Program-made: the position numbers and the translations under genes
Shown: positions 10,325 to 58,673 of the stretch, piece by piece
How the letters are laid out: every line of letters begins with the position of its first letter
Position numbering within the stretch: position 1 is the stretch's first letter
NCBI GenBank assembly: GCA_000146465.1
Contig: CP001948.1
Length of the DNA stretch: 64,000 bases
Reading direction: 5' to 3' (one strand)
Notes under the pieces: generated by a model
Told to the model about the DNA's origin: nothing
Database searches by the model: none
The model's input: the letters and a program-made list of their open reading frames with translations, nothing else

Positions 10325-10394
10325 GAGCCCTGGCTGATCTGATTGATTTTGCTGTTTCACCCACCCTTATAAACAAAAATACTGAAAATCCCTA

Positions 10395-11009
10395 ATGGTG
10401 GTTCTCACAACCCAGGGGAATTCCAATAGAAAGATCTTTGAAATAAGAGATGGAACTGCATTGGGAGACTTGCTCCGAGACTATGTTCGGGCATTGGAAC
10501 TATACTCGATCGATATGGAGAGTGTGAGGGAATCTTTATCCTCGATTTTTGCATACATATTTCTTTTAACTGTGCAGATCTTCGGGTTCCTGTGGGTCGT
10601 CTCATGGACTGAAGGCAAAAAAGGGATAAGTTCTGCTGCAGGACTGTCTTTTGGGGCCTTTTGTGTGATGACTATGTTCTTCTTTGGAGCCGGATATATT
10701 TACAAAGAAATCCTCAAGAAAAGAGCTGATTCGTCATACATCTCGTATGTCTATGTGGTTGGGCTTTCTGTTGTACACTACCCGTATCTTATGTTTATAG
10801 GACTATTGGCAAAGAATATATGGATGTTTCTTTGTATGATGGCCATCACCTCGATTTCCCAGTTTCTTATCCGATCATCTATGCTGAGGAACCACAACTT
10901 CGAGAGCAGTAGAGATGGATTTATGTTTGACATTGCCTCGTTTATCCTCCAGTGTGGGTTCTGTTTTGGAAGTCTTTCTCTCTTTAGTTTCCTATCGCCT
11001 GGGAATTAA
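10395..11009 (+). CDS. Hypothetical polytopic membrane protein (about 4 TM).
   Basis: Four hydrophobic helices, for example IFAYIFLLTVQIFGFLWVV and FGAFCVMTMFFFGAGYIY. Confidence 0.45.
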   Translation: MVVLTTQGNSNRKIFEIRDGTALGDLLRDYVRALELYSIDMESVRESLSSIFAYIFLLTVQIFGFLWVVSWTEGKKGISSAAGLSFGAFCVMTMFFFGAGYIYKEILKKRADSSYISYVYVVGLSVVHYPYLMFIGLLAKNIWMFLCMMAITSISQFLIRSSMLRNHNFESSRDGFMFDIASFILQCGFCFGSLSLFSFLSPGN

Positions 11010-11057: not shown

Positions 11058-12038
11058 TCAGTTGTATGTCTTGTTTAACTCGTATCCCTTTCCAGATGCC
11101 CAAGCAATATTGATTCCATTGTTTGTGTCCACCTGATGGATGGTTTTTCCATCTTCAATCCCAAGGTTCTTTATGAAAGAAATCAGATAAAACAACCTAC
11201 GGCATTCGAGAGACTCAAGAAGATTGCACTTCTTGTAGAACTTGTCCTTGACTTCCTTCATGCTTGTCTTCTCGCCTCTGGCAATCTTTCCAAACTCGTC
11301 ATGGAAGTAAGAAAGTAGATACAAGCTGTCGACATCATTTAGGAAGGGCTTTCTAACTACGTTTGCAAGCTTCAATACGATGTTTGTAGCACACAATTCC
11401 TGGCTATTGTCATCCTTGGACTTGCACTCTTCAGGATCCGACAAACCAAGGGATGTGATTCCAAGGTCGATTGACTCGGAAGTCACTCTTCCGTTCTTTT
11501 CTAGAAAAGATATTTGAGTACTTCCTCCGCCCATGTCGATGATTCCTAGGCTTTTCTGCTCGTTTTCCTTTCCCTTGTTGGAGAGAATTAGTGCCATGAG
11601 AGCAAATCTTCCTTCATCTATCCCATTTATCACCTCGATCTCCTTGAGATTGTATTCCTTTAGCTCATTCCTTACAAGATCCAGAATGTGGTCTGAACGC
11701 GATTTGTCCAATGTTCTGAATCCTGCAGTTCCGTAAAACCCAATAGGCATCTCCTTGATGTTGTTGTAGAACGGCTTTGCATGTGTGAAGAGTTCTCTGA
11801 TTGAGTTTTGGATCTCCTCGTCACTTTTTGCACCTGCTAGGCCTTGAGAATTTGTAAAAAGGCCCTGGTGCTTGATCTCTCCATCAACAAACCCATATAT
11901 ATTCAATCTTGTTCCTGTGGATCCTGCATCTATTACCCCACTGTATGTCATCTTGGACGGGGAAAAGGCCTTGGAATTGGAGGGGGAAGAAAGACCTAAG
12001 ATAATTCCTGGGAGCAAGAGGAGCAGCATAGTATCCAT
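11058..12038 (-). CDS. GDA1/CD39-family nucleoside phosphatase (apyrase/NTPDase), with an N-terminal signal/anchor.
   Basis: Apyrase conserved region ACR1 GVIDAGSTGTRLNIYGF. ACR2-like GTAGFR. ACR4 IIDMGGGSTQISF. N-terminal hydrophobic MLLLLLPGIILGL. Confidence 0.8.
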   Translation of the reverse strand: MDTMLLLLLPGIILGLSSPSNSKAFSPSKMTYSGVIDAGSTGTRLNIYGFVDGEIKHQGLFTNSQGLAGAKSDEEIQNSIRELFTHAKPFYNNIKEMPIGFYGTAGFRTLDKSRSDHILDLVRNELKEYNLKEIEVINGIDEGRFALMALILSNKGKENEQKSLGIIDMGGGSTQISFLEKNGRVTSESIDLGITSLGLSDPEECKSKDDNSQELCATNIVLKLANVVRKPFLNDVDSLYLLSYFHDEFGKIARGEKTSMKEVKDKFYKKCNLLESLECRRLFYLISFIKNLGIEDGKTIHQVDTNNGINIAWASGKGYELNKTYN

Positions 12039-40716: not shown

Positions 40717-40839
40717 TTTTGCATCGACTAACTTCCATTGGGACTAAGTATATTATGGCCAAAGTCAATCTGAAACCATCAAGATCCTCTTGAAACACAG
40801 CTGCATTTAGAAGATTGCAGAGTAAACAAAAAGCCAATA

Positions 40840-49466: not shown

Positions 49467-52331
49467 TTAAACTACAGATTGTAGAGGCGTTCCTTCTCGA
49501 CTTCTTGCGGCAGTGCTAAGAGATACAATCTCTATATCACTCACCAATGGCCCCAGCTTCTGGACAATATCGCCTATAACTTCATCATCCGAAACCAACA
49601 TGCTTTCATTAGGGATTTTCTTTTCCTTTATCTTCTCTACAATCCTATCGATTTCCCGGCTCTTGCTCTTTTCTCCAACACTCATCGTTTGTGGATATGC
49701 CGAGGAAGTCGATGAACTGTAAAAAGTAGTGGTTTCTTCCTCCAGATCTGATTCCAAAAGCGGCTTCTGTGTGGTAGAACTTTCTATATTTGTTGTTGAA
49801 GAAAAGACTTCGCTTGGCTCCACAGTCTTAGTAGAAACATTATTTCCACTATATATGGCCGATTTTGATACTACAGAGGATATTCTTCCAAGGCTAGATC
49901 CATCTTCTTTTGCAAAGCTTTTCCGGGTTTCAGCAGCTTTGAGGCTCAGTAGCTCGTTTCCTATATGGGCGACCTTACTAGAAAACTCGTTCAGTTTTTC
50001 CTCAAGTCTCTTTACATGGTCTTTGACAACGGAGTTGACAGCACTAAGATGCATGCTACTATCAAACTCTCTTATTACTGTAGTTCTTACCGTATCAGTT
50101 ACGGTTTTGTACTCTATGTCTTTCCTTCCGTTCCTTGAAAGTGTGAGAATTTCGTATTTGTAACTTTTCGGGTTGGTGGGTTTTGTAACTATACCATCTT
50201 CCTTCTCTATCGATGTTTTTTCCTTCATGAATTTGTTTCTTGAATTAGTTTTCTCTTTGCTAGAGAACTCCTTGAAAAGTGTGGCTACAGATGGAAGTGA
50301 ATGTTCTTTGTGATTCTTCTCATTTAAAGGACCAAAGTCCGAAATCGGCGAAAGAATTGGATCGATTTCATTATCGTTTCCGCTTTCCTCCCCAGAACCT
50401 CCAGCCATCCCATCTTGATTGTAAGACAGAGAAGAAATCTCTTCTATTGTATCCTTTCTATTTGGAGTTCCAAGGTTGCCGGAAGCATTTTCAATCTCAT
50501 ATGCATTATCCTTCCATCTTTTATCCAAGCCTGTAGTATAAGGCATAGGACCTAGCTTTAAACGCTTTTCAGACATTAAACGAGAGGCAATGCTCTTTTC
50601 ATAAGAGCTATCATCCTTGTATACTTCATACAGCTTCTTCAATAATTCAAAAGAGTCATCTTCATCTCTCTCTTTTTTTCTAATAGACAATATTGTATTC
50701 ATAAGATTCTTGTACTGCTCTTCGTTCGCCACAATCCTCTGATACAGATTATCCATCTTTTTTGCATAATCTTCATAAATATATATACTCGGCACTTCCT
50801 CTTTCTTGAATGAAGAGATAGAAAGGATATAAGGGCCTTTTGTCTCCACAGGGGGAACAGCCGAATTAACAATTGTGTAATCCTTAACTTTTGTACTTGT
50901 TTTGGTTATGGTGGTTGTGGTCTCCTTGGTTATTGTATTTCTGCTAGTGCTAGAGGAAAGTCTTTTGGTAAAGGCAGTGGAGTTTCCCCCCTTTAACATA
51001 TCAAAGATGCTTCTTATTAATTCCTTGGTATGGTCGTCATAGAATGAACCTCCTGCCTCTTTTACATAAGAATCTACAGACGGCAGCCTACTTGCAGTCG
51101 TTGTACGTGTTCTCTCGACAGTAGTAGTTATTGTCTGAGGATCAACGGATGTTCTTGGCTTTGAAGCTGTAACACTGGTGCTGGAGCTTGTATTTATAGG
51201 ACTACTTCCCTGTATACTGAGCAAACTCTTGATCTTCTCAAGAATTTCAATATATGCCGAACTATTTCCCACTTCTCCGAATGCTGTTTTCTCAGAACTT
51301 TTTCTTGGGTTCGTAGATAGTACTGTATCCAATTCTTGATTTTCCATCAATTCCATCTTGCTTCTTCTATTTTTCGAGTTCTCCACAAATACCGTCTTTA
51401 AAACGGTTTTTACATCATCACCCGACTCTCGATGCAAGGAGCTCCATTGCCTTGTGATCGTCCTAGTTATTAGTATGGTCTGTGTTTTAGTCTTTTTTAT
51501 AGGTTCAATACGTTCCTGATCCCTAATCTTTGTGGTTGTAGTTGTAGTTGTAGTTGTTACACTAGTCGTCTTTAAGGTAACTACAGAGACAGATCTGCTA
51601 GAATCTCTAAAGGGAGTTCCACTTCCACCATTTTGGCCCTCAGAATCAGGGACAAAATCAAAGGATTCTTTGATGAAAACAGGTACAAGATTGTTTTTCT
51701 CCAGAATTATTGGCTCGGGATGGTCGGCAGGGATTCGAGATGAAATCAAAAGAGGGTCTGTTGAATTCTGGTATCCAATAGGATATTCAGATGAGTTTTT
51801 TCCACAGATCTTTTCTATCCTAGGATTTCCCAGAACATACTCGTAAAGGGCTTTTATATCATCTCCCATTCCAAGACGTTCTTTTGTTCCATAATTTCTG
51901 ATGGCCCAACTGTGCAGATCGCAGATTCTATATGTGGATCCGTTATAAACGATGGTATTGTCATCCCCATCAAAGATTTTCTGAACAGGCTTTCTCGGTA
52001 TGGAATCGTCTTTTTCCAGAGTCATATTATTTGTATTCTTTTCGATATTCTTCTTTACAAACTTGATGAAAGGCCGTTCCTCTCGTTGCAAGATCTTTTT
52101 GATTGTCATGGCTGGAGGGCTTTTTACCTCTACGGTTCCCAGAATCTTGGTCCCTTTATTTTCAGGATTGTATACTTTAAAGCAAGAATCTCGGCACCTT
52201 TGATCATCGGATCTGCAGTTGCAGGAGATTCCCGGGACTGGATTTCCTTCGCTAGCCTGAAGAATCATAGTCTGAGCAATTACATATCCAGCTATAAGAA
52301 AACATCTGAGAAACAGCTGGGTGGCAAGCAT
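49467..52331 (-). CDS. Secreted Thr/Ser-rich mucin-like protein (954 aa) with a signal peptide and a Cys-containing N-terminal module.
   Basis: Signal peptide MLATQLFLRCFLIAGYVIAQT. CNCRSDDQRCRDSC near the N-terminus. Poly-Thr TTTTTTTTTK encoded by a (gtagtt)n-like DNA repeat near 51530-51560. Long S/T-rich tracts. Confidence 0.65.
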   Translation of the reverse strand: MLATQLFLRCFLIAGYVIAQTMILQASEGNPVPGISCNCRSDDQRCRDSCFKVYNPENKGTKILGTVEVKSPPAMTIKKILQREERPFIKFVKKNIEKNTNNMTLEKDDSIPRKPVQKIFDGDDNTIVYNGSTYRICDLHSWAIRNYGTKERLGMGDDIKALYEYVLGNPRIEKICGKNSSEYPIGYQNSTDPLLISSRIPADHPEPIILEKNNLVPVFIKESFDFVPDSEGQNGGSGTPFRDSSRSVSVVTLKTTSVTTTTTTTTTKIRDQERIEPIKKTKTQTILITRTITRQWSSLHRESGDDVKTVLKTVFVENSKNRRSKMELMENQELDTVLSTNPRKSSEKTAFGEVGNSSAYIEILEKIKSLLSIQGSSPINTSSSTSVTASKPRTSVDPQTITTTVERTRTTTASRLPSVDSYVKEAGGSFYDDHTKELIRSIFDMLKGGNSTAFTKRLSSSTSRNTITKETTTTITKTSTKVKDYTIVNSAVPPVETKGPYILSISSFKKEEVPSIYIYEDYAKKMDNLYQRIVANEEQYKNLMNTILSIRKKERDEDDSFELLKKLYEVYKDDSSYEKSIASRLMSEKRLKLGPMPYTTGLDKRWKDNAYEIENASGNLGTPNRKDTIEEISSLSYNQDGMAGGSGEESGNDNEIDPILSPISDFGPLNEKNHKEHSLPSVATLFKEFSSKEKTNSRNKFMKEKTSIEKEDGIVTKPTNPKSYKYEILTLSRNGRKDIEYKTVTDTVRTTVIREFDSSMHLSAVNSVVKDHVKRLEEKLNEFSSKVAHIGNELLSLKAAETRKSFAKEDGSSLGRISSVVSKSAIYSGNNVSTKTVEPSEVFSSTTNIESSTTQKPLLESDLEEETTTFYSSSTSSAYPQTMSVGEKSKSREIDRIVEKIKEKKIPNESMLVSDDEVIGDIVQKLGPLVSDIEIVSLSTAARSREGTPLQSVV

Positions 52332-52532
52332 ATATATAGTCTTTTGTTTACTCTGTTCTTCTCATGGTTTTATTTTGTTTCACATGCAATGGATACTTGC
52401 AGAAAGTAAACCATGAGTGAATAAATAAAGAAGCTTTTAATGAGTTGCATTTCTCTGAACACTCTCCTTTAAATTCGGATGGGCCATTCTTCATTGTACC
52501 GAAGTCATTGATATATAAATAAAGATAAAACA

Positions 52533-53804
52533 TTGTTTTGGGTTCTCTATAAAAGTTCAAGTATGTTTATTTATATAATAATGAGGTGTGCTCTACTATT
52601 TTTTCTTCTTAAGTACGTCTTTTCATCGGTGGAAACTGCTTCTTCCGATCCTAAGAAGGGGGTAATGGAAAGCCCTAATCAAGAGATATCATACCGTCCA
52701 GGGGGAAGCAACGAGAAGGTTGGGGTGAAGGGAACTCAAGTAGAATCAGATGGACTGTCTCTTCGAAGACACACCGATGAGGGAGGATTGGTTGTATTTT
52801 TGGCTCCAAATCCTTACGAAGAATGGAGTTTCTCATACACTTTTACCAATGCAAAGCTTAGATTCCCACATATAGGTGGTGTGTATCTATGGTATACCTC
52901 CGAAATCCAGGACCAGGGAAGTTACAGAGGAGGCCATGACCTGTTTGAGGGAATCATGGCAGGTCTTGAGTTTAGAGGATCCCAGCCCGAGATAGTCATG
53001 GCAATAAACGATGGGAAGACCAGTCTTGTGGGTTCAGAAGAAATGACTTTGTATAGAGATACAGTAAACCCGGAAAGACTTAAGGGAGTAAAAGACATCA
53101 CGGTTAAGGTGATCTCCACACATAAGAATTTTAAAGTCGAACTATATGACGGAGACAGACTGCTATACGATAGCTTCAGGTATTACCGTAAAGGAACACT
53201 AGCAGGAATTGGATCTGGAAAGTACTTTAACATTACGTCGTTCTACGACAAAGCACCTTCTGATAGCGTTTATAAGCTCAAAGAGGCACAGCTATTTGAA
53301 AGGACAGAGACAAGTGACTACGAAGTTCATAGTATTCATGCACCGTCGGTGGACAAAACCCCAAGATCTCCAGACGGAATCATGCATGAAGATGAAGAAG
53401 TAAGACATCTTATCTCAAAGATCGAGTATCTGAATGAGTATCTCCACCTGGTAGTCGGAGAGCCTCATAACTCATCGTTTGATAAGGTTGTTCACATTCT
53501 TTCTGAACAACTCAAAGCATTTACAAAGAAGTTTGAAGATACCATCACGCCAATAAGAAGTGTAGGAGGTTCGGAGACAAAGCTTATGAATCTGAATGAA
53601 AAAATGAATGGGATTGACATAAAACTTCAGAAGATTCAAAAAGCATTTGCAGACTTGGATCATGTGGTAGGTTCTCTCAAAAATGACTACAGCCGAAGCT
53701 CGAACTTTCTTGTTTACATAATCCTAGGAGTTGGGGCTGTAGGACTAGGACTTATGGCAATGAAAGAGTATAATGCATTGAAGTTTAGGCAAAAGGCCCT
53801 CTGA
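52533..53804 (+). CDS. L-type (legume-like) lectin-domain type I membrane protein, an ERGIC-53/VIP36/Emp46-like cargo receptor.
   Basis: N-terminal signal peptide. HIGGVYLWYTSE...GGHDLFEGIMAGLEFRGSQPEIVMAINDGKT parallels the ERGIC-53 segment GADGLAIWYAE..GPVFGSADLWNGVGIFFDSFDNDGKKNNPAIVIIGNNG. Coiled-coil stalk. Single C-terminal TM VYIILGVGAVGLGLMAM with a short tail. Confidence 0.6.
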   Translation: MFWVLYKSSSMFIYIIMRCALLFFLLKYVFSSVETASSDPKKGVMESPNQEISYRPGGSNEKVGVKGTQVESDGLSLRRHTDEGGLVVFLAPNPYEEWSFSYTFTNAKLRFPHIGGVYLWYTSEIQDQGSYRGGHDLFEGIMAGLEFRGSQPEIVMAINDGKTSLVGSEEMTLYRDTVNPERLKGVKDITVKVISTHKNFKVELYDGDRLLYDSFRYYRKGTLAGIGSGKYFNITSFYDKAPSDSVYKLKEAQLFERTETSDYEVHSIHAPSVDKTPRSPDGIMHEDEEVRHLISKIEYLNEYLHLVVGEPHNSSFDKVVHILSEQLKAFTKKFEDTITPIRSVGGSETKLMNLNEKMNGIDIKLQKIQKAFADLDHVVGSLKNDYSRSSNFLVYIILGVGAVGLGLMAMKEYNALKFRQKAL

Positions 53805-57892: not shown

Positions 57893-58354
57893 TTATTTTT
57901 TTATGAACCGATTAGCTTTCATTTTGGATCCAATAAATATGTACTCTATTCCATTATGAGGAATTATGAAATCAGTTGTTCCCTTTAAGTAAGTTTTTAC
58001 CGAGTTATTTTCCAGGACAACAACTATCGAATTGGCTCTTTCTTCGACTATTATTCCATGCGTTCCTCCCACAACCTTGATCTTTGCACCTGTTAGCTCA
58101 CACATGTACATTTTGTTTACAAAAGTTGATGGGCTCATTCCTCCCTTTAACTCGGATAGATACTCAGTAAACTTTTTACTTATCTCCACGAAGTCCTTAT
58201 ATCTTATTTTTTGTCTTTCAACACTTGGAATCCCTGCGGTCTGTTTCCTTTTGGAAGTTTTGACGCTTTTGTTTGCCAACGAAAATCTTTGGGAAAGAGC
58301 TCGAATGGTTTCCTTCCTCATGTACGAGCCATAATGATCCTCTACGCTAAACAT
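57893..58354 (-). CDS. RNase P/MRP protein subunit Rpp29/Pop4-like. Start set at an internal Met.
   Basis: C-terminal Rpp29 domain pattern ELTGAKIKVVGGTHGIIVEERANSIVVVLENNSVKTYLKGTTDFIIPHNGIEYIFIGSKM. The 100-aa N-terminal extension of the long ORF is low-complexity and overlaps the plus-strand ORF. Confidence 0.55.
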   Translation of the reverse strand: MFSVEDHYGSYMRKETIRALSQRFSLANKSVKTSKRKQTAGIPSVERQKIRYKDFVEISKKFTEYLSELKGGMSPSTFVNKMYMCELTGAKIKVVGGTHGIIVEERANSIVVVLENNSVKTYLKGTTDFIIPHNGIEYIFIGSKMKANRFIKK

Positions 58355-58361
58355 CTCGCCT

Positions 58362-58673
58362 TTGCCTGGGGATAGAAAATGCATCAATGTTGCATTAAGT
58401 TCCATGGAGAAGAAGAACAGAGAGCTGGCTAGAGAAAACACAGAACTCAAAAAAAAGATTACATCTATGAAGAGGATCGAGGGAGACTTACTGAAGGACA
58501 AGATAAAAAAGGAGTACTTTGGATTTAGGGTATGGAAGAGGATTTCTGGAGAGCTTGAAAAAAACATTAATATGGTTGAGAATGTACTGTCCAGTCTTAA
58601 GAACCTTAAGATGGATATTCCCAAGAACGGGCCAGAAGAGGTTTTAGGGGACAAGTCGAATCAGAAGGAATAA
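58362..58673 (+). CDS. Hypothetical small coiled-coil protein (103 aa).
   Basis: ORF with heptad-like charged sequence. Competes with the extended Pop4 ORF. Confidence 0.3.
   Translation: MPGDRKCINVALSSMEKKNRELARENTELKKKITSMKRIEGDLLKDKIKKEYFGFRVWKRISGELEKNINMVENVLSSLKNLKMDIPKNGPEEVLGDKSNQKE

Follow-up and report, generated by a model that had tools for sequence, protein, structure and literature searches.

A predicted L-type-lectin-fold homologue of cargo receptors beside an orphan secreted protein on chromosome VII of Encephalitozoon intestinalis

The locus and its features

The 64-kb stretch of DNA analysed here, to which we refer as the window, belongs to chromosome VII of the microsporidian Encephalitozoon intestinalis ATCC 50506, and our analysis concerns two divergent genes at its positions 49467-53804. 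The minus-strand open reading frame (ORF) at 49467-52331, whose presence with 954 residues was confirmed, is 100% identical to Eint_071560 (orthologue ECU07_1590 in E. cuniculi), while the plus-strand gene is Eint_071570, of 407 residues (orthologue ECU07_1600). RefSeq labels both as 'uncharacterized'. We conclude that Eint_071570, to judge from its predicted structure, is a new and divergent member of a known cargo-receptor family lying beside an orphan secreted protein, and that the divergent arrangement is an ordinary one. In our judgement the two are probably independent neighbours, a conserved receptor homologue and a fast-evolving secreted protein.

Identities between E. intestinalis, E. 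cuniculi and E. hellem, compared for 13 neighbouring genes, set the two apart. The lectin-fold protein is 82-85% identical between species, a value equal to that of the threonyl-tRNA synthetase (ThrRS), whereas Eint_071560 shares only 47-48% with its E. cuniculi and E. hellem orthologues. The latter value is the lowest of the 13, the other 12 genes ranging from 59 to 97% (59-69% for the proteins of a cluster at 40.8-46.2 kb, 97% for an AAA ATPase). The two neighbours therefore evolve under different regimes.

A previous sequence-only reading had proposed a divergent pair sharing a 200-bp promoter, with the plus-strand gene running from 52533 to 53804. The head-to-head orientation and the gene itself stand, but its start had to be moved to the ATG at 52581, which other species share and RefSeq uses, and the spacer between the start codons measures 249 bp (52332-52580). 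The TTG at 52533, a product of bacterial-style ORF reading, was rejected as a start; it lies in the middle of a palindrome that is conserved in the promoter. The features of the locus are as follows.

49467..52331, minus strand: Eint_071560, 954-residue signal-peptide protein without a transmembrane (TM) segment or a glycosylphosphatidylinositol (GPI)-like C-terminus (ORF; 100% match)
51530..51557, minus strand: hexanucleotide repeat encoding T9, residues 259-267 (Tandem Repeats Finder, TRF; alignment)
52182..52223, minus strand: cysteine motif CxCx6Cx3C, residues 37-50 (alignment of 7 orthologues)
52332..52580, no strand: spacer between the start codons, its ends conserved and its middle not (six-species alignment)
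52344..52351, minus strand: GTAAACAA element, 20 nt before the ATG of Eint_071560 (kept in E. cuniculi and E. hellem)
52376..52382, minus strand: TGAAACA element, 51 nt before the ATG of Eint_071560 (cross-species conservation)
52527..52539, plus strand: palindrome AAAACA-T-TGTTTT before Eint_071570 (invariant alignment block; sole occurrence in the window)
52548..52555, plus strand: TATA-like TATAAAAG, 33 nt before the ATG at 52581 (alignment; supplement of PMC2803860)
52581..53804, plus strand: Eint_071570, predicted type I membrane protein and L-type-lectin-fold cargo-receptor homologue
52662..53309, plus strand: lumenal beta-sandwich with the predicted L-type lectin fold, residues 28-243
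53394..53696, plus strand: helical, coiled-coil-like stalk, residues 272-372 (long helices in the AlphaFold2 (AF2) model; the full-length profile matches coiled-coil proteins of the PDB)
53706..53801, plus strand: TM helix (residues 376-394) and 13-residue cytosolic tail KEYNALKFRQKAL (hydropathy, tail comparison, alignment)

In UniRef and GenBank, ECU07_1600/Eint_071570 bears the name 'threonyl-tRNA synthetase (fragment)'. This is an annotation error, probably carried over from the true ThrRS gene two genes off (46238-48178), and the present assignment corrects a misleading name that is propagating in UniRef. The orthologues from E. hellem, Ordospora and Anncaliia are named 'L-type lectin-like domain-containing protein' in the same database.

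Eint_071560, a fast-evolving secreted protein

Eint_071560 had been described as a mucin-like, typical heavily O-glycosylated secreted or wall protein, and several elements of that description hold up. Its sole strongly hydrophobic segment is N-terminal (residues 1-24) and is kept in the orthologues, which by hydropathy supports the signal peptide and secretory routing. The small cysteine module is present as C37, C39, C46 and C50, spaced CxCx6Cx3C, and these residues are invariant in the 7 orthologues aligned, as are C137 and C176. A poly-Thr run is indeed encoded by a DNA repeat, T9 (residues 259-267) arising from (TTGTAG)x4.7 read as ACT ACA codons (TRF period 6, 28 nt). All orthologues carry T5-T6 at this place, so that the ACT-ACA hexamer array has grown by ~3 codons in E. 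intestinalis.

The 'very long Ser/Thr tracts', on the other hand, are not there. The longest pure serine/threonine (S/T) run counts 9 residues and the next 6, and the richest 40-residue window reaches 50% and no more. Overall, S+T makes up 21.9% of the protein and proline 4.4%, with four S/T-rich patches; this is ~2x the local background, given that S+T spans 6-18% in the 44 other ORFs of the window (47 in total) once its three S/T-rich genes are set aside. Apart from the 28-nt hexamer array, no tandem repeat was found in the S/T-rich segments, nor any tandem repeat at the protein level, and ~75% of Eint_071560 consists of K/E-rich, helical or disordered sequence that is not S/T-rich. With S+T at 22%, T9 as the longest run and 28 nt of tandem repeat, 'mucin-like' is an overstatement.

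The behaviour of the threonines points in the same direction. Their positions are invariant across species and fall in motifs alternating T with V or I (TLKTTSVTTTTT, QTILITRTITRQ, VKTVLKTVFV, TITTTVERTRTT and KTVTDTVRTTVIRE), which a low-confidence AF2 model draws as long strands, and a homologue from a microsporidian recovered in a JGI metagenome repeats a related motif, VRTVTVE. Such positional conservation is unusual for proline/threonine/serine-rich (PTS) domains, and long domains of that type are absent from Eint_071560. That it is nonetheless a true mucin-type, heavily O-glycosylated wall protein is therefore unlikely in our view, even if the signal peptide, the enrichment in S/T and the existence of O-mannosylation in microsporidia (PMC3879972) are what one would expect of it.

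Outside the Encephalitozoon/Ordospora clade, Eint_071560 has a counterpart in one more distant relative only. An exhaustive HMMER profile search of 1.84 billion representatives returned ten proteins only; those with a named source come from Encephalitozoon or Ordospora, and the others from Logan contigs and from the JGI metagenome microsporidian. Neither Pfam, searched with all 7 orthologues, nor a profile search of the PDB gave a match.

These properties recall those of spore-wall proteins (SWPs) and polar-tube proteins (PTPs, such as PTP1), which likewise combine a signal peptide, lineage restriction, fast evolution, S/T enrichment and conserved cysteines with the lack of a Pfam domain, although we found no sequence similarity between Eint_071560 and the named PTPs and SWPs. 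Eint_071560 is thus probably a secreted spore-stage protein, extracellular, surface-bound or part of a matrix. It would combine a small disulfide motif with strand-like Thr/Val/Ile motifs, and a spore-stage extracellular or surface location appears most likely. Since mannosylation of microsporidian spore-wall and polar-tube proteins is documented and a protein O-mannosyltransferase belongs to the microsporidian core gene set (PMC3879972), Eint_071560 may be O-mannosylated as well.

Eint_071570 and the L-type lectin cargo receptors

For the plus-strand gene, the sequence-only reading had claimed the conserved L-type lectin core of cargo receptors from the endoplasmic reticulum (ER) to the Golgi, and a C-terminal TM. 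Both the family and the fold are supported by predicted structure. The AF2 model, built with 17 orthologues, shows an all-beta domain with a predicted local distance difference test (pLDDT) score of ~90 over residues 28-243, followed by long helices and a terminal membrane helix. When the model was searched with Foldseek, the first 41 matches were all VIP36, ERGIC-53, Emp46p, Emp47p or an Entamoeba domain (E 1e-11 to 6e-8), with TM-scores (by target) of ~0.65-0.78 for domain-only chains. The lumenal domain thus has a predicted L-type lectin fold that resembles the cargo-receptor subgroup more closely than plant lectins or GH16.

Sequence comparisons, carried out with 16-17 members of the family, are weak but coherent with this assignment. 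The proposed profile check against PF03388 gave 16.2 bits (E 0.007) for full-length Eint_071570 and 17.9 bits for the domain alone, below the curated gathering score of 24 bits, and yet 13 of the 16 family members match PF03388 (best E 6e-5). A profile of the domain alone found ten PDB matches with E <1, all ten of them Emp46p, ERGIC-53, the Entamoeba lectin-like domain or VIP36, the best being Emp46p (E 0.002); the full-length profile was swamped by coiled-coil matches. With hhalign, a partial LMAN1-type alignment gave a pairwise E of 2.9e-4 and a probability of 40%, the template being partial in that its query, a rat p58 fragment, yielded exon-sized fragments only. Given the strong structural matches and the weak but coherent sequence matches, we consider the family assignment right, and Eint_071570 would be a divergent L-type-lectin-fold member of the ERGIC-53/VIP36/Emp46p-Emp47p family.

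The rest of the protein has the layout of a type I receptor, namely a signal peptide, a predicted lumenal carbohydrate-recognition domain (CRD), a helical stalk, a single TM and a short tail. Hydropathy shows one hydrophobic window (residues 373-395), in agreement with the C-terminal TM initially proposed, as well as an N-terminal leader in all orthologues and tails of 9-15 residues. The gene occurs in one copy per species, and its orthologues extend to Nosema and Anncaliia with 30-48% identity. From Encephalitozoon to Nosema and Anncaliia, microsporidia would have kept a very divergent receptor of this fold, one that scores below the Pfam threshold and has lost its canonical site. A survey of fungal lectins reported the housekeeping lectins for glycoproteins to be absent from Microsporidia (PMC8227253); the Eint_071570 family was evidently too divergent for that survey to detect.

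With ERGIC-53/LMAN1 and VIP36/LMAN2, Eint_071570 shares the motifs GxxxWYT, F-x-G, P-x-I-V...N-(D/N)-G and R-D, the helical stalk and the C-terminal TM. It differs from them in the ligand site, and here the claim of a conserved core does not extend to the residues that bind calcium and mannose. HMMER and hhalign returned one and the same alignment with ERGIC-53, whose numbering is used below for the residues of the site. In it, G-A-D121-G-L-A-I-W-Y of ERGIC-53 pairs with I-G-G-V-Y-L-W-Y, and in all 17 members the Asp121 position is occupied by Gly or, in Anncaliia-like sequences, by Ala. The segment F-F-D152-S-F-D-N156-D-G-K-K-N-N-P pairs with E-F-R-G-S-Q-P, a 7-residue deletion of the DSFDND(G/N)K loop by which both the Ca2+ ligands and Asn156 are lost. 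Around the expected place of His178 the members vary, and the residue has no conserved equivalent. Taken together, the Ca2+/mannose residues of the ERGIC-53/VIP36 type (Asp121, Asp152/Phe154/Asp155/Asn156/Asp157, His178 and Asp181) were not found in the 17 members, and the KKFF tail of ERGIC-53 is missing too.

On the alignment, this loss would rule out a site of the ERGIC-53/VIP36 type but not membership in the family, because Emp46p shows the same two features, Gly in place of Asp121 and, before the NDG motif, a short segment that lacks the Ca2+ loop. Yeast Emp46p is a working receptor. Since Emp46p is also the best sequence match, the microsporidian protein appears to be of the fungal Emp46/47 type rather than of the metazoan, Ca2+-dependent type. 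Emp46p and Emp47p share with it the signal peptide, the CRD, the coiled-coil stalk, the TM and the short tail. There are also differences: identity to the two yeast proteins is only 11-14%, each microsporidian genome has one gene as opposed to the Emp46p/Emp47p paralogue pair, and Tyr131 of the Emp46p K+ site (the residue changed in the Y131F mutant, 2a6x) pairs with a variable hydrophobic residue. As for the legume-lectin-like domain of Entamoeba histolytica (PDB 5zbt), it represents another lineage, and we have no evidence of its orthology with Eint_071570.

The cytosolic tail was compared with the known sorting signals, which are di-lysine motifs (KKXX/KXKXX) for COPI and a terminal pair of hydrophobic or aromatic residues for COPII. 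Lys at position -3 is found in 13 of 17 sequences and the terminal residue is Leu or Ile in most of them; a canonical KKXX signal is present in the Nosema clade only (KKNL, KKIQ and KKLK). The Encephalitozoon tails end in RQKAL or RQKSL, as compared to the canonical KXKXX of yeast.

One may ask whether a lectin-fold protein so altered still serves as a cargo receptor, or whether it has become, for example, a structural membrane protein of the polaroplast, the polar tube or the spore wall. The loss of the Asp121 equivalent and of the Ca2+ loop, the non-conservation of the Emp46p Tyr131 and the non-canonical Encephalitozoon tail would all fit such a change, and so would a promoter whose TATA box and palindrome, in place of a CCC-like motif, resemble those of nearby secretory or spore-type genes. 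Against it, the full architecture of a receptor is kept (a stalk, a TM and a short tail that has Lys at -3 and, in the Nosema clade, KKXX), the protein is as conserved as ThrRS, and Emp46p functions with the same Gly and short loop. We consider such a change of role decidedly unlikely.

If Eint_071570 is a receptor, as we favour, its beta-sandwich would face the lumen of the ER and Golgi, its stalk would probably oligomerise the protein, and its short, basic tail, which ends in Leu and has Lys at -3, would probably bind coat proteins for cycling. Microsporidia are reported to have neither N-glycosylation nor N-glycan ligands. Because the canonical site is lost in an organism reported to be free of N-glycans, cargo capture would most likely be independent of Ca2+ and proceed via O-mannose or protein contacts. 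Eint_071570 may offer a concrete entry point to the sorting of polar-tube and spore-wall proteins in a minimal secretory pathway of a eukaryote.

Spacer, synteny and promoter elements

Of the 46 junctions between genes in the window, 10 are divergent, and their spacers span 44-998 bp (median 157 bp). The head-to-head arrangement is the default of a compact microsporidian genome and probably a by-product of genome compaction. An alignment of the spacer from six species shows a conserved block within ~70 nt of each ATG and ~100 nt in between that are unconserved. In E. cuniculi, 5' untranslated regions are shorter than 7 nt, with the signals near the start codon (PMC2803860). Conservation being confined to one block beside either start codon, the simplest reading of the alignment is that of two proximal promoters, one per gene, each of which would drive its gene independently. 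The shared bidirectional promoter of the sequence-only reading thus finds no support: the orientation and the short spacer are there, while a central element, or conservation going beyond synteny, was not found.

The adjacency of the two genes carries no specific information either, since the whole block around them is syntenic. The order ThrRS, TEL2-like, 954-residue protein, lectin, Dus, SNARE, DCP2 and AAA (~20 kb) is kept in E. cuniculi, E. hellem, E. romaleae, Ordospora and one further relative. The JGI metagenome microsporidian retains synteny on both flanks, but one of its contigs reads 954-homologue, 387-residue protein and ThrRS and the other lectin, 331-residue protein and Dus to DCP2. 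There, the two are not head-to-head: the 954-homologue diverges from a membrane-protein gene, and the lectin gene follows the end of a membrane-protein gene on the same strand; a single gene likely lies between the two contigs, which do not overlap. In Nosema bombycis and Anncaliia the lectin gene is present among unrelated neighbours, with no homologue of the 954-residue protein beside it.

That the pair forms a co-regulated unit of a receptor and its mucin-like cargo under one bidirectional promoter is highly unlikely, for its head-to-head adjacency in four Encephalitozoon species, Ordospora and one further relative is background synteny that is broken in the JGI relative, its promoter blocks are separate, Eint_071560 is not mucin-like, and the lectin has lost its canonical sugar site and reaches lineages where the supposed cargo is not nearby. 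In favour of such a unit stand the divergent position of the genes 249 bp apart, the TGAAACA-type element before each of them and the lack of a CCC-like motif in both.

On the side of Eint_071560, TGAAACA at -51 and GTAAACAA at -20 lie exactly 24 nt apart, and the TGAAACA is kept in E. cuniculi, E. hellem, E. romaleae, the Logan species and the JGI species. On the side of Eint_071570, the palindrome AAAACA-T-TGTTTT is followed by TATAAAAG at -33. In Encephalitozoon this palindrome is degenerate (AAAACATTGTTTT), in the JGI relative it is perfect (TGAAACATTGTTTCA), and in Ordospora it reads TAAAACATTGTTTCA; in N. bombycis, a TGTTTCA half-site precedes the TATA box. The palindrome before the lectin gene is conserved across microsporidia, and a TATA box comes after it in every case. 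GTAAACAA is listed for ECU07_1590, and TATAAAAG for ECU07_1600, in additional file 5 of PMC2803860.

The layout TGAAACA-N24-GTAAACAA, ending 10-12 nt before the ATG, is common to the 954-residue gene and to an 845-residue, Ser-rich gene starting at 40840, where the elements occupy 40791-40797 and 40822-40829 on the plus strand. Both E. cuniculi and E. hellem keep it, and the sequences given for the upstream regions of E. cuniculi agree with it (PMC2803860, additional file 5). TGAAACA is also found at -46 of a 517-residue gene (43510, plus strand) and twice before a 313-residue gene, at -75 and -65 (45173 and 45183, plus strand), the second copy being the palindrome TGAAACAAGTTTCA. These four genes, each of them S/T-rich or with a signal peptide and all located between 40.8 and 52.3 kb, account for all five sense-oriented copies that lie <=120 nt from a start codon in the window. 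As 75 of 3916 7-mers occur in at least 4 upstream regions of the window, this enrichment is unremarkable by itself, and the case for TGAAACA depends on its positional conservation across species. The GTAAACAA element fits the forkhead consensus.

A CCC-like motif stands just before the start of most housekeeping genes (PMC2803860), and the same is true of most of those in the window. In place of this motif, the 954-, 845-, 517- and 313-residue genes and the lectin gene have elements that are TATA-like or of the GTAAACAA type. For yeast Ste12, the optimum of its PRE site is TGAAACA (PMC12712937), and a 'STE12 transcription factor' (NP_586509) is annotated in E. cuniculi (PMC2474625).

Several points weigh against our view of two independent genes, one of them a receptor homologue. 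Eint_071570 scores below the PF03388 gathering threshold, which leaves its homology leaning mainly on predicted structure, and its Encephalitozoon tail is not a canonical di-lysine signal. For Eint_071560, the AF2 model has a mean pLDDT of 35.5 and is uninformative, so that a role can only be inferred. TGAAACA-type elements precede both genes, at 45-55 nt from the ATG of each. Lastly, in the literature library searched by locus tag and accession, no paper mentions Eint_071560, Eint_071570 or the genes of the 40.8-46.2 kb cluster; neither gene appears in the supplements of PMC3879972 or in the text of the proteomics papers examined, and our search for Emp47 in microsporidia found no literature.

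Were the lectin gene co-regulated with secretory genes, this would come about through a shared class of elements and not through a shared promoter, and it would not be specific to the 954-residue gene. A bolder proposal, to which we attach little probability, is that the one receptor of this fold which microsporidia keep despite their reported lack of N-glycans, its site deleted, sorts O-mannosylated or unglycosylated spore-wall and polar-tube cargo and is switched on together with the fast-evolving 954-, 845-, 517- and 313-residue genes through the conserved TGAAACA, the optimal Ste12 site. If true, this would define a Ste12-like 'secretory/sporogony regulon'. The TGAAACA/GTAAACAA architecture is a cheap, testable way into the stage-specific regulation of a parasite that is genetically intractable.

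A layout like that of the lectin gene is also seen elsewhere in the window, where TGTTTCA (10353-10359, minus strand) and then TATAAACAAAAA lie ~25-42 nt before the gene of a 204-residue multi-pass membrane protein (10395-11009, plus strand). The 845-residue (40840-43377, plus strand) and 313-residue (45248-46189, plus strand) proteins are paralogous over ~100 residues (BLASTP E 2e-10, 31% identity), and no significant BLASTP similarity connects either with the 954-residue protein. Both end in CxCx4Cx3C, and the similar CxCx6Cx3C of the 954-residue protein lies near its N-terminus.

Two further genes of the window deserve mention. At 11058-12038 on the minus strand lies a nucleoside phosphatase of the GDA1/CD39 family with an N-terminal signal or anchor, similar to the Golgi GDPase and of the kind that supports lumenal mannosylation. 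The 224-residue ORF at 57893-58567 (minus strand) contains an RNase P/MRP p29 domain in its C-terminal third only; as p29 orthologues count 153-157 residues, the true gene is shorter than this ORF.

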